DNA of 17,522 nucleotides from Sulfurimonadaceae bacterium (GTDB lineage: Bacteria > Campylobacterota > Campylobacteria > Campylobacterales > Sulfurimonadaceae), in the NCBI GenBank assembly GCA_041571435.1, contig JBFFUI010000041.1:1-17522 (forward strand). Reading direction: 5' to 3'. The notes below the pieces were generated by a model, which ran no database searches, was not told where the DNA came from, and worked only from the letters and a program-made list of their open reading frames with translations. This document shows positions 1-17,522 of the stretch, one piece after another. Every line of letters starts with the position of its first letter. The stretch's first letter is position 1. The position numbers were made by a program, and so were the translations under genes.

Positions 1-2
1 AA

Positions 3-224: not shown

Positions 225-227
225 TAT

Positions 228-878: not shown

Positions 879-893
879 AATCTGTACATACTG

Positions 894-902
894 TGCTACA
901 AT
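894..902 (+). promoter_or_regulatory. Putative extended -10 housekeeping promoter (TGcTACAAT) for the downstream hypothetical gene
   Basis: TGCTACAAT in the AT-rich intergenic region about 44 nt upstream of ATG 946; matches the TGnTAnAAT consensus of Campylobacterota. Confidence 0.5.
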
Positions 903-945
903 GATGTAAAATCGTAATATAAATCCGTCATTGAAGGAATATACT

Positions 946-1359: not shown

Positions 1360-1365
1360 TCTTTA

Positions 1366-1659
1366 CTATTTGACGTAGTCCACTACTTTGCTCAAAGTGG
1401 TCACCTCTTTGATAAAGGCGACCACTTCCAGATGCGCCGGATGTGTCGCATATTCGCTTAACCCCTCTTTTGTCTCAAATGTCGAGATCAGCGAGAGGTC
1501 CATTGCTCTCTCGCTCCCGTTAAAGTCTATACCGATCTCCATCGAAAGCAGAGGTTCAACCTTGTCAACCAAAGCCTCCAACATCTCTTTTGCCTTGGCG
1601 ATATTTGCGGCTTTGTTCTCTTCTTTAAAGTCAAACATTACGATATGTACGATCATCAT
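1366..1659 (-). CDS. Dabb family protein (stress-responsive A/B barrel)
   Basis: MIVHIVMFDFK...DLSLISTFET...L..YATHPAHLEV...VVDY is the classic Dabb signature. AGGAG RBS upstream; the second ATG at 1656 may be the true start. Confidence 0.9.
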   Translation of the reverse strand: MMIVHIVMFDFKEENKAANIAKAKEMLEALVDKVEPLLSMEIGIDFNGSERAMDLSLISTFETKEGLSEYATHPAHLEVVAFIKEVTTLSKVVDYVK

Positions 1660-1807
1660 TTCTCCTGGTTTTTCATTGCGAGAATTTTACCCAATATTGG
1701 CTACTATCATGATATGAACGCAGTTTACAGTAGTATTATCATCTTTTTATACTTTCTCGGGCTCTTCTGTTCAGGGCTTGTCAACAACGATAGCCGGACA
1801 ACATATT

Positions 1808-3232: not shown

Positions 3233-3253
3233 ACAGATCAAAAGGGAGAGAAA

Positions 3254-3988
3254 ATGTTCATTCCGCGGATATTTCCACAAAGACTCAAGCACCAGGAGCA
3301 CTCTCTGAGAGAGACCTTCTCCCTTCTTGTCTGGAATGTCCATAAAGAGAACCAGGAACCGGCCTTTCAGGAGAGGCTAAAAGAGCTGCTGCACCATTAT
3401 CCAAGTGACTTCCTTCTTTTTCAAGAGGTTAAGCATCCTAAAACAACACCCTACTCTCTGCAGCACTACTCCTATGCTATTGCTAGCAACATTGAAACTG
3501 CAAAAAATATTTTCGGTGTTGTCACCGCCGCCAATATCTCTTTTGAAAAAGTTGACAGATCGATCTCATCGCAAAGAGAGATGGGTGTTGCCACCCATAA
3601 AAGTTTCCTTGTTACGCAGCACAGATTGAGCAATAATGAACTTTTTCACCTCATCAACCTGCATTCCATCAACTTTGTTTCAATAAAAAGCTTCACCTTG
3701 GAGTTGGACAAAATCAAACGCGAACTCGGTGCCATCAAAGGGCCGATGATCATCGGCGGAGACTTCAACAACTGGACTAAAAAGCGTATAAAAGCACTCG
3801 CCCTGTTTCAAGAAGAGCTGGGTCTGGAAAAAGCGGATGTTGATGAACATCACCACATCAAATCCATCTTTTCCAAACCGTTGGACCACATCTTCTATCG
3901 CGGTGTCAAGCTTCTTAAAGCAGAAGCGATCGACACAAAAAAAGTCTCTGACCACAATCCTATTCATGCGCTGTTCACGCTTGTTTAG
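3254..3988 (+). CDS. Endonuclease/exonuclease/phosphatase (EEP) family protein, YafD-like
   Basis: Motifs LLVWNVHK, FLLFQEV, INLHSIN, IIGGDFN, LDHIFYRG and SDHNPI; GGGAG RBS upstream. Confidence 0.9.
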   Translation: MFIPRIFPQRLKHQEHSLRETFSLLVWNVHKENQEPAFQERLKELLHHYPSDFLLFQEVKHPKTTPYSLQHYSYAIASNIETAKNIFGVVTAANISFEKVDRSISSQREMGVATHKSFLVTQHRLSNNELFHLINLHSINFVSIKSFTLELDKIKRELGAIKGPMIIGGDFNNWTKKRIKALALFQEELGLEKADVDEHHHIKSIFSKPLDHIFYRGVKLLKAEAIDTKKVSDHNPIHALFTLV

Positions 3989-4002
3989 CTAGAGGTTCTG
4001 AT

Positions 4003-5361
4003 CTATACCAGGCCGGACCAAAAGAAGTTGGCGATCAGGACGATCAGGACGATCCCGGCGATGTTAAGTAAAATCCCGTACTTCACCATTGTCTTGACAT
4101 CCACTGCCCCTGTCGACATCGCAACAGCATTGGGCGGCGTCGCGATCGGAAGCATAAAGGCATAACTCGCACAAAGCGTCGCCACCATCATAAAGAGACG
4201 CGTGTCGATACCGGTCTGTACAGACACCGAGTAGATCACCGGCAGCATGATAGAGATCAGTGCTGTGTTGGACGTCACTTCCGTTGTAAAGGTGACGATA
4301 GTAGCGACCACCAGCAGCAGCAGGATCGGAGCTAGCACCGTAAGATCGATGATGTAAGAGGCGATCTGATCGGCCAGGCCTGTTTCTGAAAATGCCCTGG
4401 CAATGGAAAAACCGGCACCAAAGAGTAGCATGATGCGGAATGGGATCTTGTTTTTGTCTGTCATCCAGTCAAGCAGATTGAACGGCGGGGCGAAGAGGAT
4501 CAAGCCTGCAGCCAGCAAGATCACGGGTTCGTTCATCCCCAGCCCGTCCCAATAGGGTCGTATGGGTGCATTGACCAGTAAGAGCAGCAACAGAGAACCG
4601 AGAACAAACATCACCTTTTTTTGATCCCTGTTCATCGGTCTGTGCTCAAAATCACGCTCTAAACGCACTTTGCCGACACCGATACTAAGTACTGATGCGA
4701 CCACGATGAACATGATGATCGAAAGCGGTGCAACCATCCACATCCATTGAAAAAAGGGAATCGTCTCCATGCCGTGTTCTTGCATAATTCCAAGCAGAAT
4801 AAGGTTTGGCGGCGTCCCTATCGGCGTCAAGACTCCGCCGACGCTTGCCCCATAGGCAATAGCAAGGGCAAAACGGAGTTTAAGTGTCAGCTCTTCTGAG
4901 AGGTAAAGTGCGATCGGGATAAGCAGCAGTGTGGTCGTTGTATTGGAGAGGATCGAGCTGAGCAGTCCTGACGTAATGGCCAATGAGAAGATGATCCCTC
5001 TGGCCGTGTTGGGAAAGACCTGCAGTACCTTCTCGGCGATCCAGGTGTGCAGTCCGCTCTTTTCAACGGCGATCGCCAACAGAAAACCGCCTAAAAAAAG
5101 GTAGATGATGGGATGCGCATAATTGACCGTTGTCGCCTTGGTGCTCAAAATTCCCAGGCTGGGAAAGAGCACAATGGGAAGAAGTGAGACGACCGCAAGG
5201 GCAAGTCCCTCATTCGTCCAAAGTGTCACTAGCAATACCAGTGTCCCCACCAGTGCCGACTGCTGATACGTTAAAAAAAGGGATCCGAATGCAAAACCAA
5301 ACAGACCTAGAAGAAAAGCGATCGTTATCTTTTTTATCTGTGTGCGTTGCTCGATCATCAA
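4003..5361 (-). CDS. SLC13/DASS family sodium:dicarboxylate/sulfate symporter
   Basis: Highly hydrophobic 452-aa protein with LSNTTT, GGVLTPIGTPPN, TEVTSNTA and AFMLPIATPPNA motifs. Confidence 0.92.
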   Translation of the reverse strand: MMIEQRTQIKKITIAFLLGLFGFAFGSLFLTYQQSALVGTLVLLVTLWTNEGLALAVVSLLPIVLFPSLGILSTKATTVNYAHPIIYLFLGGFLLAIAVEKSGLHTWIAEKVLQVFPNTARGIIFSLAITSGLLSSILSNTTTTLLLIPIALYLSEELTLKLRFALAIAYGASVGGVLTPIGTPPNLILLGIMQEHGMETIPFFQWMWMVAPLSIIMFIVVASVLSIGVGKVRLERDFEHRPMNRDQKKVMFVLGSLLLLLLVNAPIRPYWDGLGMNEPVILLAAGLILFAPPFNLLDWMTDKNKIPFRIMLLFGAGFSIARAFSETGLADQIASYIIDLTVLAPILLLLVVATIVTFTTEVTSNTALISIMLPVIYSVSVQTGIDTRLFMMVATLCASYAFMLPIATPPNAVAMSTGAVDVKTMVKYGILLNIAGIVLIVLIANFFWSGLV

Positions 5362-5366
5362 TCTCC

Positions 5367-6263
5367 TTAGCGTGTCAAAAGGTCATTGAGGCTTTTGAGC
5401 GGCTCTTTGCCCTCGAGAATGGCATAGACCTCGGCAGCGATCGGCAGATAGATAGCGCGTTCCTGGGCGATGGTATTAAGAGCATATGCCGTTCCGATGC
5501 CTTCTGCGACTTCGCCCAACTCCTCGAGTATCTCAGCTTGAGACTTGCCCGCTGCCAGACCGAGACCGACACGATAGTTGCGTGACATTGTCGAAGATGC
5601 TATCAAAAAGAGGTCCCCTGCACCGCTTAAGCCCATGAAGGTCTCATCGTCTGCTCCGAACTGTTTACCAAAACGGCGCATTTCAACAAGACCGCGTGAG
5701 ATCAGTGAGGCGCTGGCGTTATGACCCAGTCCCAGCCCTTCGCAGATACCTGCAGCGATCGCGATGACGTTCTTGTATGCCCCCGAAACTTCAGCACCGA
5801 TGACATCGGTAGAGACATAGGTGCGGATAAACGAAGGGAAATACTCCGTAAAGGTCTTGGCCAAGGCCTCGTTTTGCGAGTTGACGACCAAGGCGGTAGG
5901 CAACGCTTTCATCACCTCTGCTGCGAAAGAAGGGCCCGTAAGAAAAGCGAGGTTCTGTACCGGGACATGCTCAGCGAAGATCTCGTTTAAAAAACGGCCT
6001 GTACTGGCTTCGATCCCTTTGGCTACGACCAATATCTTCTGGTTATCGTAAACCAGGTTCTCTTCAAGCCAACAGGCCACCTGCTGTGCCGGGATGGCCA
6101 TCACAAGGTACTCCAGTTTAAAGATCTCTTCGAGTGAGACAAAGTTCTCTATATCACGTTTCGTACGCGAAGTAATGTAGACCTCGTTCTCAGGGTTTTG
6201 GCGAAAAGCAAAGGCGAGCGCCTGCCCCCACTTACCTGCTCCGATCACACCTATTTTCTTCAC
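5367..6263 (-). CDS. gpsA: NAD(P)H-dependent glycerol-3-phosphate dehydrogenase
   Basis: GAGKWG Rossmann motif, AKGIE, GPSFAAEV, KNVIAIAAG, GLSGAGDL, SRNYRVG and AEG; GTG start. Confidence 0.96.
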   Translation of the reverse strand: MKKIGVIGAGKWGQALAFAFRQNPENEVYITSRTKRDIENFVSLEEIFKLEYLVMAIPAQQVACWLEENLVYDNQKILVVAKGIEASTGRFLNEIFAEHVPVQNLAFLTGPSFAAEVMKALPTALVVNSQNEALAKTFTEYFPSFIRTYVSTDVIGAEVSGAYKNVIAIAAGICEGLGLGHNASASLISRGLVEMRRFGKQFGADDETFMGLSGAGDLFLIASSTMSRNYRVGLGLAAGKSQAEILEELGEVAEGIGTAYALNTIAQERAIYLPIAAEVYAILEGKEPLKSLNDLLTR

Positions 6264-6949
6264 TATATCGTCCTTTTAAAATTCTCTATCTGTTCATCAT
6301 AACCGATTACAACTAAAATATCACCGACGTCTAGACGGTGTTTGAACCCTCTTGACGTAAAGACAAATGAAGTCTGCATCGTCGCATCGACAACGGCAAG
6401 AACGATCAGATTCTCCTCGACTTGAAGAGAGACGTCGTACAGCGACTGGCCCACCAAAACCGAGCCTTCATTAATGGCTAACTGGACGGTTTTGAGTGCC
6501 GTCTCTTCCTTCAGAATATCGCTAATGATGCGGGTGACGACCGGTTTTTCCAGCACCTCGATGATCAGGTCGGAGGTGGCCTGCAATTTGGATATGACTT
6601 TATTGGCGCCGGCAAGATGCAGCTTGGAAGCGTGCTCATGCGTCGAGGCCAGGGCGATCAGACGGACATCTTCCAGACCATCTCTCAGTCCGATGGTTAA
6701 ATAGACGTTTTCGGCATCGTCTTCAAGCGCACAGATAAAAAGCGTCTCTTCCATGTTATAGTCACGGAAATCGTCCCAGTTGTCATCAAGATCGAAAAGG
6801 TCCGCTTGGAACCCATCTTTGATCGCCTCGGTCACGCACTCTTCATGCAGCGCATAGACTTTTACACTGCGATAGGCCTCTTTGACCTGATGCACGATCT
6901 CTTTTGCAAACTCCGCATAGCCAAATACGACAACGTCTAATGTCTTCAT
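6263..6949 (-). CDS. Stand-alone TrkA/RCK (RCK_N + RCK_C) potassium-channel regulatory protein
   Basis: Degenerate Rossmann start (VVVFGYAEFA), D..NVY...GLR, LHLAGANKVI and a C-terminal TrkA_C-like domain (SVLVGQSL...GDILVVIG). Overlaps the channel stop (ATGA, 6946-6949). Confidence 0.85.
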   Translation of the reverse strand: MKTLDVVVFGYAEFAKEIVHQVKEAYRSVKVYALHEECVTEAIKDGFQADLFDLDDNWDDFRDYNMEETLFICALEDDAENVYLTIGLRDGLEDVRLIALASTHEHASKLHLAGANKVISKLQATSDLIIEVLEKPVVTRIISDILKEETALKTVQLAINEGSVLVGQSLYDVSLQVEENLIVLAVVDATMQTSFVFTSRGFKHRLDVGDILVVIGYDEQIENFKRTI

Positions 6950-8562
6950 CGTAACCTCTTGTGTATAAAGAGTCTAAACTCGTTGATCATGGAGTGGTCC
7001 CCTACGACGATCATAATGTCCCCTGCGTTGATCGCTGTCTCTATCGGCGGATTAAAGATAAAGTTCTCCTCTTCCGGTTTGGAGAGACCGATCAGCAACA
7101 GACGATGCCTTCGGATATGCAACTCTCCGACATTGCCGAAATTGCCGGCGATACGTTCATCAACAACGATCTCTTCCATCGCCGTTCCCGAATCTTCTGC
7201 CCGCAGCATGCTCAAGGTTTCGAACGCCACCGGTCTACCGCTGTACTCCTTGGAAAGCAGTCCGATCAACTCCTGGGAATAGACGATGTCGTTCACACCG
7301 GCAAGATGCAGTTTCCGGCGGTTTTTCTTTTCGTGCAGCAGTGACAGTACTTTCGTCTGCTGGTCCATTGCACGCAATGTCAGCGCAGTATAGACGTTAA
7401 GAATATCTGTTTCTCGCAGCAAGATAACCGCTTTAACCTGCTTCTCGAAATCGATCCCCATGCTCTGGTATGTCGAGAGCGAAGCCGGATCCAGCATCAG
7501 ACCATAGAGCTGATTGTCCTTGGCCTCTTTGATGCGTCCGTAATCGGTGTCGAGTACAACTACATCCCTGCCGCTGCGACGCAGTTTTGAGGCCGTCTGT
7601 TTTGCGACGATACCGTAACCGCAGATAAGATAAAAGTGTTTCAGACGTTTTATATCGGCAAACATCTTGTTCTCGCGGATATCATCAAGCTTTTCCGTAA
7701 AGGCCGTCACTACGATCGATGTCGCAAACGAGATAACCGCGATCCCGGAGATGATCACAAAGATGGCGACCATCCGTCCCTCTTGAGTTACCGGGGTCAC
7801 GTCACCGTAGCCCACGGTCGAAATGGTAACGACAGACCAGTAGAATGCATCGAAGAGCGTATTGATCGGCGAGCTTGGATTGTTCGCTTCCATGACATAG
7901 ATCAATACCGAAGCGACAAAGACAACCACACTGGCAAAGGTTAGAAGCGTCAGTAACTCGAACTTCTTATGAGAGAGAATATAGCCGAAATACTGCATAT
8001 TCTGGGTATATCGGAAGATTTTGAAGACACGGAACAGGATGAATAGACGCAGCAGACGCAGTTCATGGAAGAATGGCATGATCGCCAATAGATCGATGAT
8101 AGCAGCAGGTGAACGGACATAGTTCCATTTGGCGGTAATGACTTTCAACAATGCATTACCGACACGGAACCGGCGCTGAAGCAGTTCATCTTTCTCATAC
8201 TGACTGATGATCATTCCCGACGAATCACTGATCACCCAAAAACGGAAGAGGTACTCGATCAAAAAGATGAGTGAAATGATATAGTCATTAAAGAATGCAA
8301 AAAAATCATGGGACTCATAACGTACTTCTCGGATCAAAATGATGACACTTGAAAAGATCAGTACCATCATGGCAAGATCAAAATAACGTTTATAAGGATA
8401 ATTGTTGTTCTCTAACAGGTCATAAAAGAAGTTTTTGGCACGCTTGTAGCGCGATGACGTTTTAAGAAAATAGGCGAGATCAACCAGTTTTTTGGCGATC
8501 ACCCCGGAAGGTTTATATTGTGATGATGAAGAGTTATCAGACACGTTCTGTTCTTCATCCAT
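6946..8562 (-). CDS. 6TM potassium channel with voltage-sensor-like domain and C-terminal RCK domains
   Basis: S4-like LRLLRLFILFRVFKIFR, pore helix and filter DAFYWSVVTISTVGYGD, and RCK HFYLICGYG. ATG 8562 is preferred over TTG 8565. Confidence 0.93.
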   Translation of the reverse strand: MDEEQNVSDNSSSSQYKPSGVIAKKLVDLAYFLKTSSRYKRAKNFFYDLLENNNYPYKRYFDLAMMVLIFSSVIILIREVRYESHDFFAFFNDYIISLIFLIEYLFRFWVISDSSGMIISQYEKDELLQRRFRVGNALLKVITAKWNYVRSPAAIIDLLAIMPFFHELRLLRLFILFRVFKIFRYTQNMQYFGYILSHKKFELLTLLTFASVVVFVASVLIYVMEANNPSSPINTLFDAFYWSVVTISTVGYGDVTPVTQEGRMVAIFVIISGIAVISFATSIVVTAFTEKLDDIRENKMFADIKRLKHFYLICGYGIVAKQTASKLRRSGRDVVVLDTDYGRIKEAKDNQLYGLMLDPASLSTYQSMGIDFEKQVKAVILLRETDILNVYTALTLRAMDQQTKVLSLLHEKKNRRKLHLAGVNDIVYSQELIGLLSKEYSGRPVAFETLSMLRAEDSGTAMEEIVVDERIAGNFGNVGELHIRRHRLLLIGLSKPEEENFIFNPPIETAINAGDIMIVVGDHSMINEFRLFIHKRLR

Positions 8563-8572
8563 CAAGAGACCT

Positions 8573-9997
8573 TTATCCTAGTTTTGCTTTGAGCATCTCG
8601 TTTACAGTTTGCGGGTTGGCGGTACCTTTGCTTGCTTTCATCGTCTGACCGACAAAGAAGCCGAAGAGCTTATCTTTACCGCCTTTGTACTGCTCGACTT
8701 TGTCACCGTTCGCAGCAATGATTTCATCGATGATCTTTTCAAGTGCACCGGTGTCATTCATCTGTTTTAGACCCAGTTTGTCAATAGCACTGTCAACATC
8801 ACTCTCGTTTTCCATCAGATAGTCAAGGACCTCTTTCGCCGCTTTACCGCTGATCGTCTTATCCTCGATACGTTTGACAAGGGTTCCCATCGTTTTGGCA
8901 TCTACAGGTGATGTGGCGATCGTCATGCCGCCTTTAAGACGACCCTGCAGCTCGACTGTCAACCATGTGACCGCATTCTTGGCACTGATACCTTCTGCCA
9001 GCATCGCCTCGAAAAAGTGTGCTGTCTCAAGCTCAGAAGTGATGACCGCCGCATCATACTCGCGCATACCGTATTCGGAAACAAGACGCGCCTTTTTCTG
9101 ATCCGGAAGCTCAGGGATGTTCGAATAAGTTGAGAACATATCATCCGGGATCACCGCTTTCAGCAGGTCCGGCTCCGGGAAATAACGGTAATCCGCTGCT
9201 TCCTCTTTACCGCGCATCGAGCGGGTCTCCTGTTTATTCTGGTCAAACAGACGTGTCTCCTGGTAGATCTCTTCATCATAAACACCGTCTTCCCAGGCAT
9301 CGACCTGCCGCTGGACTTCGATCTCGATCGCTTTTTGGATGAAACGGAAGCTGTTGATGTTCTTGATCTCAACACGCGTGTAGAGTTTCTCATCGCCTTT
9401 GGGACGAATAGAGACGTTGACGTCGACACGGAACGACCCCTCTTGCATGTTGGCGTTCGAAATGTCAAGATAACGCACTATAGAGTGCAGTTTTTTGACA
9501 TAAAGTACGGCCTCTTCGGCAGAGCGCATGTCCGGCTCGGAGACGATCTCCAGCAACGGCGTACCGGCACGGTTCAGATCCACTTTCGAGATGGCGCCGT
9601 CGTGAATGTTTTTACCCGCATCTGCTTCGATATGCGCACGGTTGATACGGATCGTCTTGCTTGTACCGTCTTCAAAATCGATATCAAGTGATCCATGCTC
9701 CACAACCGGTGTATAGAGCTGCGTGATCTGATACGCCGACGGGCTGTCCGGATAGAAGTACGACTTGCGGTCAAAAAATGAGGTACGGTTGATCGTCGCG
9801 CCGATCGCCGTTCCAAGCATCACCGACTTTTCGAGGACACTTTTATTTAATACCGGCAATGCTCCCGGCAGGGCCAGACAAGTTGGACAGGTGTTGACAT
9901 TGGGACGGTCATTAAAACTGGTCGGGCATGAACAAAAGAGTTTGGTTTCTGTATTAAGCTGAACGTGGACTTCAAGGCCGATAACGACTTCAAACAT
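8573..9997 (-). CDS. gatB: Aspartyl/glutamyl-tRNA amidotransferase subunit B
   Basis: [56 protein letters not shown] and [13 protein letters not shown]. Confidence 0.98.
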
Positions 9998-10013
9998 TGG
10001 TTTCCTTGTGGAG

Positions 10014-10042
10014 ATCAGTCAGTGACTGATATTTTAAAATAT
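10014..10042. promoter_or_regulatory. Two abutting palindromes upstream of gatB (candidate operator)
   Basis: ATCAGTCA-G-TGACTGAT (10014-10030, perfect 8-bp arms) and ATATTTTAAAATAT (10029-10042, perfect 14-bp palindrome). Confidence 0.35.
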
Positions 10043-10043
10043 A

Positions 10044-10601
10044 TTAGTTGTCTATAAAATAGCGGATCGAAGCAAAGCCGTAAGCACCGCTTTTTTCAAC
10101 CGCTTTTACCTGCTCCGGCGTAGTGATCCCGCCCAGTGCGATAATAGGTAAGCTTATTTTATCCACTATATTCTGTAAATCCTCTAAACCCTTGGGTTTG
10201 CCCTTGTCTGGCGTACTGAAGATGGGGCTGTACGTGACAGCATCGGCCCCTCTTCTCTGCGCTTCGAGGATCTCCGCTTCACTGTGACAGGAGATGACCA
10301 CAAAAAGGCCCAGTCCTTTTGCTTTTTCTATGTCATCAAACTGCAATGATGTCAAGTGCACACCATCGGCCTTCAGTTTTGCGGCCAGTTGAACATCGCC
10401 ATGAAGCATCGTTTTTGTATTTGCTGATTGCGAGCAGATGGCTATGAACTGTTCTGCCGTTTTTGCATAAGACGGGTTGTTTTTGTCCCGATACAAAGTA
10501 AAGTCGGGACAATGTCTCAAGAGTGTCGCGCTCAGCGTGTCGCGGAATTCAGAATTGAGAGAACCGTAATACTTGGGATCTGTAATCAGATAGGACTTCA
10601 T
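10044..10601 (-). CDS. thiE: Thiamine phosphate synthase (TMP-TENI) family protein
   Basis: YLITD, LYRDK, ADGVHL, SCHS, GADAVTYSPIFSTPDK and PIIALGGI. Could be a ThiE paralogue or TenI-like protein. Confidence 0.85.
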   Translation of the reverse strand: MKSYLITDPKYYGSLNSEFRDTLSATLLRHCPDFTLYRDKNNPSYAKTAEQFIAICSQSANTKTMLHGDVQLAAKLKADGVHLTSLQFDDIEKAKGLGLFVVISCHSEAEILEAQRRGADAVTYSPIFSTPDKGKPKGLEDLQNIVDKISLPIIALGGITTPEQVKAVEKSGAYGFASIRYFIDN

Positions 10602-10604
10602 AAA

Positions 10605-10880
10605 CTAAGCAGCAACCTCTACCAACCCCGTGTCAACCAGTTCCTGCACAAAACGGCAGATATCAGCTTCTAGTTGTTCCGCATCGACTTCATAGGCCTC
10701 GAGCATAGAGTCATATGTTTCACGCAATGAACCGGATGCATTGAGATGCTGCCAGATCACAGCTGCCATCTCGTCAAGACCGAAGTACTCTTCTTTCACA
10801 GTATCCAATATGACGACCTCTTCATCGATCTTCTGGGCAAATACGGAATCGGAGATAATTACTTTGTCATCTAACGTCAT
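10605..10880 (-). CDS. Stand-alone PqqD family protein / RiPP recognition element (lasso B1-like)
   Basis: 91 aa with the pattern VILD....YFGLDE.AA.IW..L.....L......L..YEVD..QLE.DI..F..EL...GLV typical of PqqD/RRE proteins; AGGAG RBS. Confidence 0.92.
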   Translation of the reverse strand: MTLDDKVIISDSVFAQKIDEEVVILDTVKEEYFGLDEMAAVIWQHLNASGSLRETYDSMLEAYEVDAEQLEADICRFVQELVDTGLVEVAA

Positions 10881-10962
10881 TTACATCTTTCTCCTGTTTC
10901 CTGAGCAGATCGGAAAAGATCGATCTTTGCTGTTACAAGGGCCTATCCACTCTATGTTTAGC

Positions 10963-11736
10963 TTAAAACGACGGCGGTAGCAATTTACTGTTACTGTTTT
11001 GAGGGCGTTGCATGAGTTCTGAGGCTTTGGTACCGACGAATGCAGCTGTTTTAGCTGCACTCGGTGCCGCTAACGGGAGGTAGTCCTCATCCGTCACCAC
11101 ACCCAATACCCAGCGGAAAGTCCGCGTATGCAGACCATCCATCTTCAGACCTGCTGTCGGAAGCTGGTCTGCTGTGTAAGTCGTATGGTTGTCAATATCA
11201 ACCAGGACCAGGGCCTCTTTCAAGGCTGGGTTAGCCTCTTGTACCTTATAATCAATCCCGCCATATTCTGTTTCGAGATAAGTCACGCCGAAAGCGCCGT
11301 CAAGAGTGATCGTGAGTGGCGCATTTGAAAGGTCGATCGAATGCTGATTTTTAACCTGAAATATCCAGCTTTTTTTCGTCGTGTCACTTCCGTCCCAACT
11401 ACGATAATCACTAAAGTAATCACCATTAGCCCCTGCCCACGCTGTTTTCGGGAAGACCACCTGAAGTATCGCCGTTCCGTAGCCTGGGATGTCGCTTGGG
11501 TCTTTATCGTCCTGGCTTTGCAACAACTCTCCGAATACCCCGGCCGAGGTATGTTTGTACACGGTCCCATCAGCAGCCGTAGCATAAACACCACTCTTCA
11601 TATACCAGCCGGCCGGCTGGTATGGCATTGCAAGTTCGCTTGTACTGCTTCCATCACTGTTGCTACAGCCTGACATACCGGTCAATACTGCCAGAACCAA
11701 AGAGAAAAATAAAGTATGTTTTAACGTTTGCATCAT
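10963..11736 (-). CDS. Hypothetical lipoprotein
   Basis: Signal peptide ending in lipobox-like MSG/C24, followed by a Ser-rich tether (SNSDGSSTS), a beta-rich body and an Ala/Pro-rich tail. The AGGAG RBS overlaps the upstream TAG stop. Confidence 0.8.
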   Translation of the reverse strand: MMQTLKHTLFFSLVLAVLTGMSGCSNSDGSSTSELAMPYQPAGWYMKSGVYATAADGTVYKHTSAGVFGELLQSQDDKDPSDIPGYGTAILQVVFPKTAWAGANGDYFSDYRSWDGSDTTKKSWIFQVKNQHSIDLSNAPLTITLDGAFGVTYLETEYGGIDYKVQEANPALKEALVLVDIDNHTTYTADQLPTAGLKMDGLHTRTFRWVLGVVTDEDYLPLAAPSAAKTAAFVGTKASELMQRPQNSNSKLLPPSF

Positions 11737-11742
11737 CTTCTC

Positions 11743-13530
11743 CTACTTTTCATATGGCAAAGCAAGTTCAACGCCTGTATTTGGTTCCAGGACTTTTACC
11801 CAGAACCCCTCGCCTGCTTTGATAGTATCCCCTAAGCCCGGGGCCGCAGCACTAACTGCTCTATAGGGTTGACCTGTCTGTGTTGCGTCATAGACATAAC
11901 CCGTTGCATTCTGCAAGACCGTTGCTGCTGCAGGGCTGTTCATAGGTGTTACTCCGCTTGGTGACCCCACATAAATGACAATATTGCCCCATTGAAATGA
12001 ACGGGGCAGATTATTGGAGACAAGGACCGTCGCATTACCGTCGGGTAGCGCAACAATCGACTGTGTCCCTACACCCACTGGTTTCGACAAATTAGCATCT
12101 GTTGCCGTGCGTGTCGGACTGATAGAACTATCAACCCGTGTCGTAACATTGCGGTCGGAAATGATCCAATACCCTTTTCCCTGCGTCACTGGGCTGCTTG
12201 CATTTAGTTCGACGTATGATGCACTCGTCGTTCCATACGTACTGTTTTGTTCGTAGACGACCCAGTTTGTTCCGTATGTTCCCAAATCGTCACCTGTCGC
12301 AGTAGAGCCATTGGTGTTGAATGCCTGCGATACCGTCGTACCAGCTGGGATAGCACAAGGGATCCCGACCATCGCCCATTCGTATGCCGTAAGGTCATAT
12401 CCTGATCCGCAAGGCAGCTCATAGATATATGCGGGTTGCGTTACACTGTGCTTCACCGCCAGCGTATCTTTGTATAAGGATATATCCTCAGCTGTCTGAG
12501 TTACATCTACAGTTGAAGGTATGATTGCTGTCGGATTTACATCGCTATCAAGTTTAGAAACAAGTTCAACCTTGTTCCCAAGATAGCCGATGGCATTGAC
12601 ACCGTCGCTGATAGAGACATCTGCTCCATTCGTCCCGTTGAACGTTTTAGAGTAGGACCAGGTACCGTTCAAAGTGTATACATCCGTATTGGTTCCGGAA
12701 AGGATGATGGTAGCACTATCCATAGCCACTTGCTGTCCGGCTTGACCACCGGCAGTCATACCCGGTGCAATGCCATCCAATGTCGCCGTCGTACCGTCAA
12801 AGTCATACAGATAACCCGCGCCCAGGTTACTGGAATAGCCGGGTGCACCAACCAGTATTTTGCTACCTGCACCTGTTACAGCTGCACCGAACCGATCATT
12901 TGTACTTGTTCCGTCTATCGTAGCCAAAGTTGGATAGACTTTGCTCCTTGCGGTCACATTCCAGTCATAAATATAGACCTTGCCTTCGTTATTAGTACCG
13001 GTAACATCGTAATAAGGCGCTCCAACGACCAGATAGTCGCCCCGGATGGACAAGGTTTCGCCAAATCCCGATAAAGCCTGATTATCTTTTGTGGCCGCCG
13101 GGGTCGCCGCAACCACTTGCTCGTTTTTAACTACCCACGCTACCCCATCGTATTCATATGTTGTATAGGCACCAACATCTTTGTCGCTACCGTCATCAAA
13201 ATTCAAAAGACCGACAGCCAGTTTTGTTCCGGACAGTGATACGGAAACACCAAACCCTTTGTTTCCGCTGCAGTTTCCTTTTGCACTACCCAACGTCTGT
13301 GCAAACCCCCATGACATTGTCGAATAGTCATATTTATACATTGTTACATAACACGAGGAAGTGTTTGCTGGATCAAAAGCCCCCACTGCGACCCACTCCC
13401 CGCTGATAGCGACTGATGAACCACCATCCGTAGGGCTCAGATCATGGAGTAAGGTCGATTCAGTATATGTAATACCGCCATACAAAGCCGTCGATAGCAG
13501 CAATGTCATCAGGCTATTTCTGAAAATCAT
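11743..13530 (-). CDS. Secreted FG-GAP repeat (7-bladed beta-propeller) protein with C-terminal beta-rich domain
   Basis: Sec-type signal (MIFRNSLMTLLLSTALYG). Repeats GSSVAISGEWVAVGA, FGVSVSLSGTKLAVG, FGETLSIRGDYLVVGAP and FGAAVTGAGSKILVGAP, plus three degenerate ones. AGAGGA RBS. Confidence 0.88.
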   Translation of the reverse strand: MIFRNSLMTLLLSTALYGGITYTESTLLHDLSPTDGGSSVAISGEWVAVGAFDPANTSSCYVTMYKYDYSTMSWGFAQTLGSAKGNCSGNKGFGVSVSLSGTKLAVGLLNFDDGSDKDVGAYTTYEYDGVAWVVKNEQVVAATPAATKDNQALSGFGETLSIRGDYLVVGAPYYDVTGTNNEGKVYIYDWNVTARSKVYPTLATIDGTSTNDRFGAAVTGAGSKILVGAPGYSSNLGAGYLYDFDGTTATLDGIAPGMTAGGQAGQQVAMDSATIILSGTNTDVYTLNGTWSYSKTFNGTNGADVSISDGVNAIGYLGNKVELVSKLDSDVNPTAIIPSTVDVTQTAEDISLYKDTLAVKHSVTQPAYIYELPCGSGYDLTAYEWAMVGIPCAIPAGTTVSQAFNTNGSTATGDDLGTYGTNWVVYEQNSTYGTTSASYVELNASSPVTQGKGYWIISDRNVTTRVDSSISPTRTATDANLSKPVGVGTQSIVALPDGNATVLVSNNLPRSFQWGNIVIYVGSPSGVTPMNSPAAATVLQNATGYVYDATQTGQPYRAVSAAAPGLGDTIKAGEGFWVKVLEPNTGVELALPYEK

Positions 13531-13579
13531 GATTTTCGTCCTCTTATCTTTTTACTACTCGGGTACACTTCGCGCTGTC

Positions 13580-13777
13580 TCAAAACTGAGGTGCACTTGG
13601 AGGCGTCTCAAAACTATGGGCATCGCTAGCCTTTGTCAAGGCCCCCAGTGCGATCAATGTCGGGGCGACGTAGGCTGCTTTTTTTATAAATGCACGTCTT
13701 GCATCCTTCTGTTGTTTCTCTACTTCTTCAGCTTTTTTAATTGTATTATTGTTTTTATTCTCAAAAATTTTATGCAT
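13580..13777 (-). CDS. Putative RiPP-like precursor peptide (65 aa) with twin-arginine motif and RRE-binding-type leader motif
   Basis: RRAFIK (res 27-32), YVAPTLIALG (res 36-45) and a short Ser/Thr/Pro-rich C-terminus. Has its own promoter and AGGT RBS, and lies in a cassette with PqqD and an HPrK-like kinase. Confidence 0.8.
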   Translation of the reverse strand: MHKIFENKNNNTIKKAEEVEKQQKDARRAFIKKAAYVAPTLIALGALTKASDAHSFETPPSAPQF

Positions 13778-13809
13778 ATTTACCTACTACTTTAAGCTTA
13801 TGTATGCTT

Positions 13810-13818
13810 ATTATATCA
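13810..13818 (-). promoter_or_regulatory. Extended -10 promoter (TGaTATAAT) for the precursor peptide gene
   Basis: The minus strand reads TGATATAAT, a perfect TGnTATAAT, about 33 nt upstream of ATG 13777 in an AT-rich intergenic region. Confidence 0.7.
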
Positions 13819-13858
13819 CTTTAGCTATAAGTATTTTATAATATTAATTTTTATTCAG

Positions 13859-14755
13859 CTAAAGACAGGCTTTTCGCCTGGCACTTGTGTGGGCCACAAT
13901 TGCACAGTGAACCTCTTGCAACCGCATTTTATCCCATGGTACCGTCACCCTGAAAACGGGGATTTTTGTGGCCATTTCACTCACTGTTTTAAAACGGTAC
14001 GCCTTAAAAAAATCGAAATTGATAAAACTGCTGAAATGAAATGCTGTAAACTTTTCAATACCGCTGACCTCTTCAATAGCGACTGCAGCATCAGATTCTG
14101 CTCTCTCTAACAGATAGACTGCTTTAAGTGGCTTTGGACCTTTAGTAACATTTGTTATTTTATGGCCCAGGCATTCTGCTTCACGAAACGGCCTGTGATA
14201 AGGATAGGAAGGGACAGCCATATACTGTTGGTCATCTCTGTAAACGCCAAGCGTATCATCCGACAACATCGTGTGCCCCTGCTGGATAAAAAAATCCGTC
14301 AAGGTTGATTTTCCGCCAAACGACTCCGCCGAAAAGATGATCGGCTCTCCATTGACTTCAACAGCCCCAACATGCAAAATATCATAACGTTTTTCCAATG
14401 TCAGCACCATAGGTAATATAGTGTGCAAGAACCAAAACTGCAGTAGTTCAGCTGAAAATGACTTTTGTGGAAAATACTCTATGGTGTGATCACCACATTG
14501 CCATATCACATACATCACGTCTTGAATATCGACTCCCCAGCTGCAACCCTGCTGGCAATCAGCATACGCTTTTTCTGCACAATACATCACTTGTCGTCCG
14601 GAGAGAGGCTTGTATTCAGATCGTACTCTTAACTTTTTAAACGCAGAAGGATCAACACTTTTGGCTACCGTGAAATTTTCTTTACTAGAATCGTATATCT
14701 TATCATTCAATGATGGCTCATCTTGGAAATTAATGTTGAAGTCAAACGCGATCAT
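13859..14755 (-). CDS. HPr kinase-related (RiPP/lasso-cluster type) Ser/Thr kinase
   Basis: LH(128)VGAV, Walker A AESFGGK(149)ST, LSDD(166-167), PLKAVYLLER and IPVFRVTVP, as in HPrK-like kinases of paeninodin-type clusters. Lacks a recognisable canonical HPrK N-terminal domain. Confidence 0.85.
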   Translation of the reverse strand: MIAFDFNINFQDEPSLNDKIYDSSKENFTVAKSVDPSAFKKLRVRSEYKPLSGRQVMYCAEKAYADCQQGCSWGVDIQDVMYVIWQCGDHTIEYFPQKSFSAELLQFWFLHTILPMVLTLEKRYDILHVGAVEVNGEPIIFSAESFGGKSTLTDFFIQQGHTMLSDDTLGVYRDDQQYMAVPSYPYHRPFREAECLGHKITNVTKGPKPLKAVYLLERAESDAAVAIEEVSGIEKFTAFHFSSFINFDFFKAYRFKTVSEMATKIPVFRVTVPWDKMRLQEVHCAIVAHTSARRKACL

Positions 14756-14761
14756 TGACGG

Positions 14762-15025
14762 TTACTTTTGGAGGGCGTCGCGGATCTCTTGAAGAAGCTG
14801 TGTCTGTTTTTTCGACTCATCCAACCGTTCTCTGTAACTGAGCATAGTCTCAAGCAAAAGAACAAGAAAAAGACCGAAGATGATAAAGATAATGGAGAAA
14901 AAGAGTGCCGTACTGACACCCATAAAGAGAAATATCTTAAAGATAATAATAGCACCCAGGACAATAAATGTCCATGAGATGCCAAGAAGGAAGCTGGTGA
15001 TCTTGTCGAAAACGCTTCGCTTCAT
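14762..15025 (-). CDS. Small integral membrane protein downstream of atpB (87 aa)
   Basis: The likely start is ATG 15025 (MKRSVFDKITSFLLG...), 8 nt after the atpB stop. Two TM helices and a coiled-coil C-terminus. The longer 131-aa call overlaps atpB. Confidence 0.8.
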   Translation of the reverse strand: MKRSVFDKITSFLLGISWTFIVLGAIIIFKIFLFMGVSTALFFSIIFIIFGLFLVLLLETMLSYRERLDESKKQTQLLQEIRDALQK

Positions 15026-15033
15026 AAAAAAGT

Positions 15034-15711
15034 TTAGTGATCGTCCGCGATCTGAACTGCACCGCCAAGGTAGACGTATGTCAGCATCATAAAGATAAAC
15101 GCTTGAAGAAGTGCCATGAATGAAAGAAGTGCGAATGGGATCATCGGCAGCAACCATGGTGCAAGCATCAGGATTACCATCAGGAACATATCGTCACCCT
15201 TAACGTTACCGAAAAGACGGAATGAAAGAGAGATAATACGAGAGATGTGCGAAACGATCTCGATCGGGAACATCAACCATGCCAACCACCAGACCGGCCC
15301 GAGGAAGTGTGCAAAGTACTTGATTACACCGTGACGACGGATACCTTCGAAGTTATAGTAGACAAAAACAACAAGCGCAAGTGCAAGTGTAAAGTCAAGG
15401 AAAGCTGACGGTGCTTCGAAACCCGGAACAATACCGATAAGGTTCGCGATAGCCACAAAAAGACCGATTGTCGCAACAAGCGGAAGGTAGCGGCGAGCTT
15501 CCTCTTTACCCATTACGTCTGTCCCCATAGCAAGTACACCGCCAAGGTATGCTTCTAAAAGGTTCTGTGTTCCTGTCGGAACAACCTTCATGTTGCTTGT
15601 TGCCAATTTAGCGATAACAAGTACGATAGCGGCTGTAAGCAGCATGTGCGTCATATAGATAAAAGCGTGATCATGGCTGATCAGACCAAAGAATGTAAAC
15701 AATTCACCCAT
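15034..15711 (-). CDS. atpB: F0F1 ATP synthase subunit a
   Basis: [40 protein letters not shown] (conserved Arg) and [14 protein letters not shown]. Confidence 0.97.
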
Positions 15712-15743
15712 TCAGTGTCCCTTTAGTACGATTTAGTTCGGCG

Positions 15744-15749
15744 ATTTTA
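15744..15749 (-). promoter_or_regulatory. Putative -10 box (TAAAAT) upstream of atpB
   Basis: Minus strand TAGTAAAAT about 33 nt upstream of the atpB ATG, with an AT-rich region further upstream. Confidence 0.4.
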
Positions 15750-15832
15750 CTACTTCGTTGATTAAACGTGGCTAAGAATTATCTTTTTTATCAGCAATTT
15801 CTATAAATTTGAGCGTTGTTTTTCAATTCTGC

Positions 15833-15860
15833 ACATTTCTGCAGTCAAACGCGGAAATGT
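15833..15860. terminator. Stem-loop downstream of ribF (possible terminator)
   Basis: ACATTTCTGC-N8-GCGGAAATGT, with 9 of 10 positions Watson-Crick paired, 24 nt after the ribF stop. No U-tract on the minus strand, so function is uncertain. Confidence 0.35.
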
Positions 15861-15884
15861 TTTAAAGCCTATCAAATGTAGTGA

Positions 15885-16706
15885 TTACAAGCTTAATCGG
15901 CGTGTTTGACGCTTGGCTGTAGCGACATCCTCTGCTATCGCTTCTTTAAGCATCTCAAGTGTATCAAACTTCTTGTTTGGCCTGATAAAATCGACAAATG
16001 AAAGTTGTAGTTTGTCAACATTTTCGACTTCACCGTCCAAAATATGCGTCTCGACCGCGTACGATCCGTCTGTTGTGACACGATGGCCAACAAAGCTGAC
16101 CGCCGGATGATAATGCTCTTCATTATTCAGACGGGCCAGGGTGACATAGACCCCTTCCCGTGGAAGAAGAAAACCTTTGACATCGATGTTAATTGTCGCA
16201 TAGAGCTCTTTTTTTCCAAGTCCCTGACCCGTCACCTTCTCTCCGGCAACGGTATAGTTGTGTCCTAAAAAGCGGTTTGCCCCTTTGATATCGCCGATCT
16301 GAAGTTTGGCTCGGATCTTATGCGAGTGCACCGAGTCACCATCGATCTGGACTTCATCAATCACCTCGACCTTGCCATCAAAGAGGGCACGCAGGTCATT
16401 AACATCATAACAGCGATTTTTGCCAAAATGAAAGTCGTAGCCGACCACGATCTTTTGCAGATCAGGGAACTCCGTCTTCAGTCTGGCGATAAAACCACTT
16501 GCATCAAGATGGCGGATATCGTCAAGTTCATAATAGAAGATCGGCAGGTCGCTGTAATGTTCTCTGGCCCTGGCCGGTGTCAAGTTGGCATAACCGGTCT
16601 CGATAACCAGGATAGCACCATTTTTGCCTAAAGCTTCAAAAAGCTGCTGGTGGCCCAGATGCATCCCGTCAAATCCGCCTATAGCGATCGCTTTAACATT
16701 TTTCAA
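15885..16706 (-). CDS. ribF: Bifunctional riboflavin kinase / FAD synthetase
   Basis: GGFDGMHLGH, VVGYDFHFG, S..IR, G.GLG....ATIN, GVY, ETHILD and FIRPNKKF; TTG start overlapping the tlyA end. Confidence 0.95.
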   Translation of the reverse strand: MKNVKAIAIGGFDGMHLGHQQLFEALGKNGAILVIETGYANLTPARAREHYSDLPIFYYELDDIRHLDASGFIARLKTEFPDLQKIVVGYDFHFGKNRCYDVNDLRALFDGKVEVIDEVQIDGDSVHSHKIRAKLQIGDIKGANRFLGHNYTVAGEKVTGQGLGKKELYATINIDVKGFLLPREGVYVTLARLNNEEHYHPAVSFVGHRVTTDGSYAVETHILDGEVENVDKLQLSFVDFIRPNKKFDTLEMLKEAIAEDVATAKRQTRRLSL

Positions 16707-17400
16707 AACAGTAACACTCCTCTAGATTTCCCTCTTTGCCGCTCAAGGTTGATGGTGCATGGTGTACCAGCTTCCATCCCAGGGCCTGTGTTGCCTCTTC
16801 AAAGGCTGTTTTAGCACTCTCTATCGCTTTTTCGTCTACAACAACGCCGTTACTGTCACGCTTGACATCTTTGCCCACCTCAAACTGTGGTTTAAAAAGC
16901 AGGATGATCCATTTTTGACTCAACGCATCAACTGACTCCAAAATATGGTGCAGCGAGATGAACGAGACGTCACTGGTGACAAGGTCATACTTGGCCTGTC
17001 GTGGATAGTCGCGGATATCCATCTTCTCAAAGCTGATCACCCGATTGTCGTCGAGCAGTTTCTGGTGAAGCTGTCCCTGTCCAACATCCACACAGGTGAC
17101 CGAAGCAGCTCCCTCTTCCAAAAGCACCTGTGTAAACCCCCCTGTACTTGCACCGATGTCAAGGACCTTAAGGCCTTTGACACTAAACGGAAGCGACGGT
17201 AAAAAACCTTTCAGCTTATGAGCTGCTCTGGAGACATAGATCATCTCGTCTGCAATCTCTACCTTTTCGTCGGTGACCTTGAAGGAAGGCTTTGTGACGG
17301 GCTTGCCGTTGACACTGACCTTGCGCGCTTTGATTAGGGTCTGCGCCTTGGTCCTTGAATCAACAAATCCCTCTTCGACCAGATATTGATCCAAACGCAT
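16693..17400 (-). CDS. tlyA: TlyA family rRNA (cytidine-2'-O)-methyltransferase
   Basis: N-terminal S4 domain MRLD.YL...SR.KA..LI....V, then YVSRAAHKL, LDIGASTGGFT, DVSFISL, KPQFE and GKEGNLE. Confidence 0.96.
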   Translation of the reverse strand: MRLDQYLVEEGFVDSRTKAQTLIKARKVSVNGKPVTKPSFKVTDEKVEIADEMIYVSRAAHKLKGFLPSLPFSVKGLKVLDIGASTGGFTQVLLEEGAASVTCVDVGQGQLHQKLLDDNRVISFEKMDIRDYPRQAKYDLVTSDVSFISLHHILESVDALSQKWIILLFKPQFEVGKDVKRDSNGVVVDEKAIESAKTAFEEATQALGWKLVHHAPSTLSGKEGNLEECYCFEKC

Positions 17401-17522
17401 TAAAACTGTACCTCTATATTAGCATAAGCGGAGCTCAGTTCCATATTGTACTGCTGCGCAACCAGACCGCCGTTATCCAGCTGATCCAGCGTAAAGTAGT
17501 AACGGCGATAACCGATGTTCAG
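17400..17522 (-). CDS. 3' end (partial) of probable outer-membrane beta-barrel protein
   Basis: Manual translation LNIGYRRYYFTLDQLDNGGLVAQQYNMELSSAYANIEVQF*. Alternating beta-strand pattern with terminal Phe. The TAA stop overlaps the tlyA ATG. Confidence 0.6.
   Translation of the reverse strand: MNIGYRRYYFTLDQLDNGGLVAQQYNMELSSAYANIEVQF

Follow-up and report, generated by a model that had tools for sequence, protein, structure and literature searches.

Two kinds of described pathway come closest to the system reported here. In paeninodin-type lasso peptide clusters, which comprise the genes A, B1, B2, C, and D and a kinase gene, the phospho-acceptor is the C-terminal Ser of the peptide. The second kind, the linear polyphosphorylated peptides (LPP) encoded by lppA-K-B-S-D-N of Paenibacillus alginolyticus, was described by Popov et al. 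(Nat Commun 2026, PMC13381572), whose main text lists as components a precursor with a YxxPxVL leader, the HprK-like kinase LppK, the RiPP (peptide made by the ribosome and modified after translation) recognition element (RRE) LppB, the SipW-type peptidase LppS, an MsbA-like pump, and the NTP-transferase LppN. According to that text, YxxPxL is the motif bound by lasso-type RREs, LppK adds several phosphates to Ser3 of the core, cutting of the leader by LppS needs LppB, and LppN had no activity in the reconstitution. LPP loci are embedded in capsule loci, often adjoining paeninodin-type lasso clusters, and by the authors' account both LPP and paeninodins occur in Bacillota only and have unknown roles; the words Tat, Gram-negative, Proteobacteria, Campylobacter, and FG-GAP appear nowhere in the main text (PMC13381572). 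Here we analyze a stretch of 17,522 nucleotides (the window) from a Sulfurimonadaceae bacterium of the Campylobacterota (GenBank assembly GCA_041571435.1, contig JBFFUI010000041.1, positions 1 to 17,522), which carries at 10605-14755 a cassette of five genes for an HPrK-like kinase, a 65-aa peptide, a 595-aa secreted protein, a lipoprotein, and a stand-alone PqqD-type RRE. Judged from its sequence, the cassette is a system of the phosphorylated lasso/LPP-like kind that has a signal-peptide leader and adds two new families of partner proteins; its functional steps we infer.

The five open reading frames (ORFs) are intact and co-oriented on the minus strand, and they lie between housekeeping genes, which confirms the arrangement described in the initial annotation of this DNA. 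The cassette and its parts are as follows.

13859..14755, minus strand: HPrK-like peptide kinase, 298 aa (Pfam and NCBIfam matches below cut-off; Walker-A and DD motifs aligned to HPrK/P)
13810..13818, minus strand: possible extended -10 promoter element TGATATAAT (taken straight from the sequence)
13580..13777, minus strand: precursor peptide, 65 aa (alignment with homologous peptides)
13583..13618, minus strand: predicted mature part of the peptide, residues 54-65 (alternatively 51-65 or 56-65; suggested by homologous cores)
11743-13530, minus strand: 595-aa secreted protein (FG-GAP_2 above cut-off)
12439..13530, minus strand: signal peptide and FG-GAP head of the 595-aa protein, a variable module (FG-GAP_2, E 1.2e-15)
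11746..12438, minus strand: conserved C-terminal domain (CTD), residues 365-595 of the 595-aa protein (homologue alignments)
10963..11736, minus strand: lipoprotein, 257 aa (lipobox Cys24)
10966..10986, minus strand: C-terminal tail K-L-L-P-P-S-F of the lipoprotein, the local form of the ...KFGLPPQ end of the family
10605..10880, minus strand: stand-alone PqqD-type RRE, 91 aa (Pfam PqqD, E 1.5e-16)

The cassette is a real, conserved, self-contained system, and we put at slightly better than even the chance that it is a relative of the phosphorylated lasso and LPP pathways that has neither cyclase nor exporter and is coupled to two envelope proteins of its own. The Pfam scan and the ORF list gave no ABC transporter, radical SAM enzyme, cyclase, B2 peptidase, or nucleotidyltransferase among the cassette ORFs, as had been claimed from the sequence alone. 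The proposal that the cassette could be a satellite of a larger lasso locus elsewhere fails on the genome to which the window belongs (2.16 Mb in 66 contigs, 100% complete). This genome holds a single PqqD and a single kinase, both those of the cassette, and no match to Transglut_core3, the family of the B2 peptidase. It likewise contains no lasso-type cyclase: its two Asn synthases (642 and 648 aa) score 349.6 and 282.1 bits on PF00733, like true AsnB, versus 77-155 bits for the lasso cyclases of relatives.

The kinase and the RRE are recognizable to different degrees. Residues 126-185 of the kinase match Pfam Hpr_kinase_C with an E value of 1.6e-4 and 21.7 bits, short of the cut-off of 33.3 bits, and the matches to NCBIfam ScmC and HprK_rel_A (both 2.4e-6) lie far under the cut-offs of these families (27.1 bits vs 125 and 26.9 bits vs 200, respectively). 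The Walker-A motif (GGKST) and the DD motif align to those of the solved HPrK/P structure 2qmh (E 8e-4), and the protein is 41-46% identical to kinases of complete lasso clusters. The RRE scores 60.9 bits with Pfam PqqD (cut-off 23.4), reaches 6.4e-13 with lasso_PqqD_Bac, which is under the cut-off, and stays below the cut-offs of PqqD_rel_X (24.5 bits vs 35) and ScmD (27.5 bits vs 100); its closest solved chain is that of the lasso chaperone TbiB1 (5v1u, E 2.8e-9).

The 65-aa precursor consists of a Lys/Glu-rich N-terminus, the segments R27-R28-A-F-I-K-K and Y36-V-A-P-T-L41, a hydrophobic stretch up to G45-A-L-T, and a core that ends in F-E-T-P-P-S61-A-P-Q-F. Among 17 aligned peptides, R28, K32, K33, Y36, P39, L44, and G45 are invariant, and the consensus reads ...RRxFLKKAAYxAPxxxxLGxLxxPTxAxA/xFGxPPSxP...W, the slash marking an AxA-type site that precedes the core in every aligned peptide. 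The Ser of P-S-x-P is kept in all cassette-type peptides seen but one, and a second class of peptides has the core ADxTGGPxGPPG... instead. We propose Ser61 as the phospho-acceptor, because of the analogy with LppK and the paeninodin kinases as described in the main text of the LPP paper (PMC13381572). RRE-guided phosphorylation of this Ser is in our judgment likely, and it is the step of which we are most confident.

The leader of the precursor holds the RRE docking motif KKxxYxxPxL inside a twin-arginine signal-like segment, whose n-region reads RRxF[LIM]K, whose h-region is free of charged residues, and whose c-region has a basic residue, with the AxA-type site just before the core. Cleavage of the window peptide after A50, A53, or S55, the three candidate sites, would leave a product of 10-15 residues with P-P-S61-A-P. 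The genome encodes TatC (226 bits) and one bacterial signal peptidase I, on a contig other than that of the cassette; an archaeal-type SpI was not found genome-wide (best TIGR02228 match 23.7 bits vs a cut-off of 51.85). A genome-wide scan found only one peptide with an RR...YxxP leader, and the pattern RRxFLK is shared by the genome's own Tat-like proteins. At E<=3.3e-9, a profile of the peptide strongly matches 17 sequences, spread over 13 of the 401 genomes searched in the order; weak matches fall at the N-termini of many ORFs of 440-1140 aa, as would be expected if the leader resembles genuine twin-arginine translocation (Tat) signals. The suggestion that Tat and signal peptidase replace the transporter and the protease thus stands as far as the signals and the housekeeping enzymes go, the export step itself being predicted from the sequence. 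We hold it probable that the peptide is exported through its leader and cleaved by the housekeeping signal peptidase, by the Tat or the Sec route.

A different reading of the same residues is that the twin arginines and the hydrophobic segment form an extended recognition site for the kinase and the RRE, with a peptide that stays in the cytoplasm or is carried out by a transporter encoded elsewhere. In the lasso precursors of this lineage, KKxYxxPK[LI] precedes a polar segment, so that part of the motif predates any signal function, and the cassette has no transporter gene. That the n-region, the uncharged h-region, the basic c-region residue, and the AxA site are all conserved argues against recognition alone, as do the nature of the partners, a Sec-exported protein and a lipoprotein, and the removal of LPP leaders by a signal-peptidase-type enzyme reported in the main text of the LPP paper (PMC13381572). 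We consider this reading very unlikely. Since the lasso precursors of the lineage already carry KKxYxxPK[LI], the linear leader looks like a lasso docking motif that has gained an n-region with twin arginines, a stretch of hydrophobic residues, and a site for signal peptidase, and we favor a leader that serves both docking and export.

Homologues of the kinase occur in 13 of 60 relatives, among them 7 of 15 congeners, and their neighborhoods fall into three types. Type A, the same five genes at the same site between atpB and thiE, is found in the congeners G011, G015, and G005; in G015 (locus L021), the unit of peptide, large protein, and lipoprotein is present twice, with one kinase and one PqqD. 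The contig of a further congener, G008, ends within the kinase. Type B, at the same site in G010 and G002, is a full lasso cluster with an ABC exporter, a B2 peptidase, a kinase, a cyclase, a PqqD protein, and a 39-aa precursor that has a YSSPKL leader and a C-terminal Ser; a similar lasso cluster lies at another site in G024. In the G024 cluster, a subtilisin-type S8 peptidase is encoded between the cyclase and the PqqD protein (L026:11154-12305, minus strand). Type C, in other genera of the family, has one to three peptides with the same leader and long, unlike cores (Gly/His-rich, Cys-containing) beside the kinase. L027-L029 continue with a PqqD gene, and L028 and L029 have an identified NTP_transf_5; the L025 contig stops inside the kinase. 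Three of these loci (L025, L027, and L029) are parts of Wza/Wzc exopolysaccharide (EPS) loci.

Of 400 other genomes of the order, 7 yielded the lipoprotein; these belong without exception to a second family, in which the same components recur in other gene orders and at other chromosomal sites. The cassette set is thereby conserved across two families, at 40-68% protein identity. We gathered related loci with the lipoprotein alignment and counted components per locus with profile HMMs built in this analysis. The 18 lipoprotein-bearing genome loci hold the CTD in 15 cases, the leader peptide in 12, the kinase in 12, PqqD in 9, and all five in 7; the misses are mostly on contigs of 1-5 kb, and all five are present in most long loci. 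The arrangement is therefore more than chance. In 61 metagenome loci, some of which probably duplicate genome loci (L094 and L048, for example, are of equal length), the CTD was counted 52 times, the leader peptide 24, the kinase 22, and PqqD 11; for the 19 metagenome contigs of at least 6 kb, the figures are 18, 12, 10, and 7. The neighborhoods of homologues in Campylobacterota, which had been suggested as a check, thus bear out that peptide, kinase, and RRE travel together.

Within the genus, the atpB-thiE site is empty in three genomes (G003, G004, and G006; loci L051, L053, and L054), has PqqD alone in one, the cassette in four or five, and a lasso cluster in two. Because the site varies in this way, it is, as far as the sequences tell, a hotspot of gain and loss. 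The lone PqqD, in G009 (L052), is 61% identical to that of the window; no kinase was found in the G009 genome, and by its sequence this gene is a relic. In the kinase tree, the four kinases from lasso contexts form a supported clade and those of cassettes are not monophyletic: the L022 kinase groups with the lasso/EPS clade (97/99), and the kinase of L031, a locus with both a lasso cluster and the envelope pair, is sister to that of L032, a linear locus (100/99). Since cassette kinases mix with lasso and EPS kinases, exchange of kinases among the three contexts seems to occur. A tree of the PqqD proteins had no starred branch and gave no resolution. In G041, an orphan kinase homologue of divergent sequence (29% identity, on a very long branch) lies between infA and a TPR protein gene (L030:7265-8143), with no PqqD or peptide nearby.

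These patterns could also mean that the cassette is the remnant of a decaying lasso cluster, of which the kinase and PqqD are leftovers, and that the small ORF encodes an ordinary, unmodified exported peptide. The full lasso clusters at the same site in two congeners, the PqqD-only and empty sites, and the kinases that fail to separate by context would all fit such decay. Decay is harder to reconcile with five intact genes and a kinase that keeps its P-loop and DD residues, with conservation of the set across two families, and with a leader that keeps an invariant RRE docking motif, for which an unmodified exported peptide would have no need. We consider a remnant highly improbable. One locus, L036 in G200, holds both kinds of pathway: the cassette genes for the CTD protein, lipoprotein, peptide, and kinase (L036:9790-16565) adjoin a second, full lasso cluster with an ABC exporter, a B2 peptidase, a second kinase, a cyclase, and a 43-aa precursor. 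The single PqqD, at the far end, suggests that one RRE may serve both.

The 595-aa protein had been described as a secreted FG-GAP propeller, and its head does match FG-GAP_2 in four stretches (57.9 bits vs a cut-off of 23). What homologues conserve is only the last ~230 residues, and in most of them the FG-GAP head is replaced by other domains: FG-GAP is found in the window and L022, and P_proprotein or Laminin_G_3 in other loci. A word-based homologue search with the CTD gave only 3 proteins, whereas a full HMMER search with a CTD profile gave 1159 cluster representatives at E<=1e-3, 696 of them at E<=1e-10, with the CTD at or near the C-terminus in the best 150 of the 1159. A Pfam scan of 60 representatives found heads of Laminin_G_3 (8), P_proprotein (8), legume-lectin (7), DUF285 (3), DUF6923 (3), and FG-GAP_2, CBM96, Sortilin/BNR, and F5/8-C (1 each), and no family in 29; 17 of the 60 carry a Laminin_G_3, legume-lectin, CBM96, or F5/8-C head. 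The large CTD proteins begin with Sec-type signal peptides. The CTD, present in one copy in the genome of the window, matches no Pfam or NCBIfam family. Its AlphaFold2 (AF2) model (pLDDT 86, pTM 0.84) is all-beta; Foldseek gave no PDB match at E<=1e-3, and the best hit of the VIA wide search (Z 5.2) was a generic beta sandwich over residues 112-231. Because its conserved columns are W, Y, F, G, and P, mostly aromatic or Gly and none of them of catalytic type, the CTD suits a binding module better than an enzyme. Structural matches to peptidylglycine monooxygenase had TM values of 0.14-0.18 and were treated as noise, and we rejected a peroxidase- or PHM-like catalytic CTD, as there are no conserved His, Cys, Ser, or Asp columns.

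The lipoprotein is likewise single copy and without a Pfam or NCBIfam match, and it has at least 211 homologues. Behind its lipobox Cys24 come a beta domain (~40-225), a low-complexity linker, and a C-terminal tail. The AF2 model (pLDDT 83, above 90 for residues 40-225) is all-beta and found no PDB match at E<=1e-3 with Foldseek; the best Z in the VIA wide search was 4.4. ESM Atlas look-ups with the CTD and the lipoprotein gave scores below 0.9 and clusters named only "hypothetical" or "putative lipoprotein." In two loci, lipoprotein homologues are fused to an N-terminal DUF4214 (L033:8370-9590 and L034:7446-8774; 406 and 442 aa).

A motif shared with the peptide connects the lipoprotein to the rest of the cassette. 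After the linker comes a conserved tail of the typical form ...KFGLPPQ, written KLLPPSF in the window, in 52 of the 69 homologues aligned and in 53 of 67 lipoprotein ORFs from metagenomes; by sequence this FGxPP end resembles the peptide core FGxPPS[DGA]P..W. The class of the peptide and the class of the tail change together in L036, L037, L086, and L093, where TGGPxGPPG peptides pair with FDLxxPP tails; in L103 and L112, the second tail beside a class-2 peptide is divergent and only a loose fit to FDLxxPP. In L031 and L080, the linear peptide is replaced by a lasso precursor that adjoins the lipoprotein gene and has a YxxPKIE leader, Thr at -2, a G1-D8 ring, and a tail ...PSDPGGW or ...PPSDPNYQ. 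L031 also holds a cyclase, a B2 peptidase, an ABC exporter, a kinase, PqqD, and the whole CTD-lipoprotein pair, whereas L080 is a short contig with no CTD match. The lipoprotein homologues of L031 are short, signal-peptide forms without the tail, and a separate 127-aa membrane-anchored protein there ends in ...KFGEPPL. Between its ABC exporter and B2 peptidase genes, L031 has an inserted toxin-antitoxin-type pair (HepT-like and nucleotidyltransferase, MNT; 2773-3524, minus strand). Read from these sequences, either a lasso precursor or a signal-peptide-led one delivers the same C-terminal PSDP motif, each time beside the lipoprotein gene; no other observation argues as strongly for the peptide and the envelope pair working together.

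One can also regard the CTD protein and the lipoprotein as an independent surface-adhesin module that shares a variable island with the kinase, RRE, and peptide and has no functional link to the peptide. The two genes are near-obligate neighbors (33 of 34 metagenome contigs of at least 3 kb), while the leader peptide, kinase, and PqqD accompany them in 19, 15, and 10 of those 34; the large size of the CTD family and the hotspot character of the atpB-thiE site point the same way. Such independence sits poorly with the co-duplication of the peptide and the pair in L021, with the joint switch of peptide and tail classes, with the FGxPP motif common to core and tail, and with the linkage of the pair to the same PSDP tail on either a linear or a lasso precursor; in addition, many apparent absences of the peptide genes fall on short contigs. 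We judge an independent module improbable. The earlier idea that the propeller and lipoprotein are partners of the peptide gains from the co-duplication and the shared motif, and it needs amending in that the conserved part is the CTD, the propeller being one of many heads.

The genome of the window also holds a single PF14907 NTP_transf_5 protein (387 aa), on contig C18 beside Wza/Wzc. The EPS locus concerned (C18 ~22771-31674; L038:2772-11675) contains Wzc, Wza, NTP_transf_5, glycosyltransferases, and an AsnB-like amidotransferase, which is one of the two Asn synthases above. There is no kinase or PqqD beside this NTP_transf_5, and other genera hold peptide, kinase, PqqD, and NTP_transf_5 there. 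Sugar extension of the phosphate has been proposed for phosphoglycosylated lasso peptides, and the phosphopeptide of the cassette might similarly be an intermediate to which the C18 enzyme adds a sugar, so that the peptide would tie polysaccharide to the lipoprotein/CTD pair with its lectin-like heads. That the genome has exactly one such enzyme, in such a setting, is in keeping with this idea, as are the lectin or carbohydrate-binding heads of many CTD proteins and the position of LPP and paeninodin clusters in capsule loci given in the main text of the LPP paper (PMC13381572). Set against it are the absence of NTP_transf_5 from the cassette-type loci examined with Pfam, the inactivity of LppN in the published reconstitution, again according to that main text, and the purely conjectural link between two unlinked loci. 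Sugar extension is, to our mind, improbable as well.

Our working model for the cassette is thus as follows. In the cytoplasm, the PqqD RRE would bind KKxxYxxPxL in the precursor, as the conserved motif and knowledge of the family suggest, and the HPrK-like kinase would phosphorylate the nearly invariant Ser of the P-S-x-P core (Ser61). The leader would double as a twin-arginine signal peptide through which the modified peptide leaves by Tat (or Sec), and housekeeping signal peptidase I would cut the conserved small-x-small site to give a Pro-rich peptide of 10-15 residues. In the periplasm or at the surface, the peptide would act on the lipoprotein and the CTD protein; this is the least certain step, to which we give an even chance. 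There, the peptide would most likely fill a site otherwise taken by the lipoprotein's own C-terminal FGxPP tail and so tune the holding of lectin- or propeller-headed proteins in the envelope. The notion of the peptide as a trans-acting stand-in for the tail is tentative, and we would sooner expect it to be wrong than right. At least as doubtful is the conjunction of all its elements, namely an RRE-docking Tat leader, Tat export of a phosphopeptide, trimming by signal peptidase, a tail-mimic switch that holds or releases surface proteins, and lasso and signal-peptide routes that are interchangeable for one ligand, the last because sister lineages deliver the same PSDP by the lasso route.

Several observations weigh against this model. 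The kinase lies under every curated family cut-off in Pfam and NCBIfam, and the L022 peptide has Asn where the proposed acceptor Ser stands. Among the 19 long metagenome contigs, the fetched stretch is without a leader peptide in 7 and without a kinase in 9, and the genome locus L033 has a lipoprotein-like gene alone, with no other cassette genes nearby; hence, the envelope pair may work without the peptide. The binding role that we infer for the CTD and the lipoprotein comes from conservation patterns and motif likeness only, because their folds gave no informative structural match. Finally, we found no precedent in the literature for Tat export of a 65-aa phosphorylated peptide, and the twin arginines could instead serve recognition by the kinase or RRE.

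If the model is correct, the chemistry of LPP is not confined to Bacillota and reaches the Gram-negative Campylobacterota, a true general-secretion signal can serve as a RiPP leader, and a minimal pathway needs a kinase and an RRE only. The lipoprotein and the lectin-headed CTD proteins would then be the first candidate receptors for this peptide family, and the purpose of phosphorylated lasso and linear peptides would become directly testable. The analysis also defines two protein families that match neither Pfam nor NCBIfam, the CTD (1159 cluster representatives) and the lipoprotein.

As to its surroundings, the cassette is flanked by thiE (10044-10601) and gatB and, at its other end, by a small conserved membrane ORF, atpB, and ribF. 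The ORF called at 14762-15157 (minus strand, 131 aa) overlaps the end of atpB. Because only its last ~87 residues are kept in congeners, in which an 87-aa membrane ORF is called, the true small membrane gene next to atpB probably spans ~14762-15025; an ORF of this 87-aa type borders the cassette site in every congener, including those with an empty site. The element TGATATAAT is extended -10-like and lies 33 nt upstream of the ATG of the peptide gene, and a separate promoter for this gene at 13810-13818 is possible. It is unlisted in our promoter consensus scan, which requires a -35 hexamer; the promoter and terminator scans of the window were not above shuffled sequences (14 vs 9.5 +/- 3.0 and 8 vs 5.5 +/- 2.4 expected, respectively). 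The sequencing runs that contain the region are of marine and sediment metagenome DNA.

Our searches of the literature on Tat-type RiPP leaders, HprK RiPPs, and Campylobacterota lasso peptides returned only the LPP paper as relevant, and the main text of RRE-Finder (PMC7470986) makes no mention of HPr, kinase, or twin-arginine. The system had initially been called undescribed; the cyclase-less combination of kinase, RRE, and signal-peptidase processing was published for Bacillota in 2026 in the LPP paper (PMC13381572, main text), and what stands as undescribed is the Gram-negative relative. The scores given above separate the cassette from two annotated systems: the equivalog cut-offs of the HPr-rel-A system (NCBIfam TIGR04352/TIGR04353) are not reached, and, unlike the SynChlorMet cassette, with ScmC and ScmD below cut-off here, it has no adjacent radical SAM gene. 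The leader is like the Tat signal peptides of exported redox enzymes in its RRxF[LIM]K motif, its moderately hydrophobic, uncharged h-region, its basic c-region residue, and its AxA site. It differs from ordinary Tat signals in that the passenger is a peptide of 10-15 residues and the h-region doubles as the far more conserved RRE docking motif.

With paeninodin-type clusters, the cassette shares a homologous kinase, a B1-type RRE, and the YxxPxL leader motif, and such a cluster occupies the same site in G010 and G002, while the PSDP tail is borne by a lasso precursor in two loci. Unlike these clusters, the genome of the cassette has no cyclase, B2 peptidase, or ABC exporter, and the proposed acceptor Ser is internal to P-S-x-P rather than C-terminal. 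The likeness to LPP, as far as the main text of that paper describes it, extends to the missing macrolactam cyclase, an RRE of PqqD type encoded as a separate gene, a putative HprK-like kinase, a YxxPx[VL] leader in the precursor, removal of the leader by signal-peptidase-I-type chemistry (predicted for the cassette), and co-localization or apparent exchange with kinase-bearing lasso clusters, patchy gain and loss, and relatives in polysaccharide loci. On the other hand, the cassette includes no dedicated SpI-like peptidase, MsbA-like exporter, or nucleotidyltransferase, its leader is by sequence a complete twin-arginine signal peptide, its predicted core is short (10-15 aa after the cut) and conserved whereas LPP cores are variable and long, genes for two further obligate envelope proteins (the CTD protein and the lipoprotein) are present, and its host belongs to the Campylobacterota, LPP being stated to be restricted to Bacillota (PMC13381572). 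By analogy, the cassette should work like the LPP pathway, and it should not be filed as an LPP member because the dedicated SpI, pump, and nucleotidyltransferase are missing from the cluster. The type-C loci (L025 and L027-L029) share with the cassette the leader family RRxFLKKAxYxAPxxxxLG, the kinase, the RRE, and a linear peptide without cyclase, and differ from it in their nucleotidyltransferase, their EPS-locus setting, their long variable cores, and the absence of the CTD protein and the lipoprotein. By their gene content and sequences, these type-C loci are a Gram-negative counterpart of the Bacillota LPP clusters.

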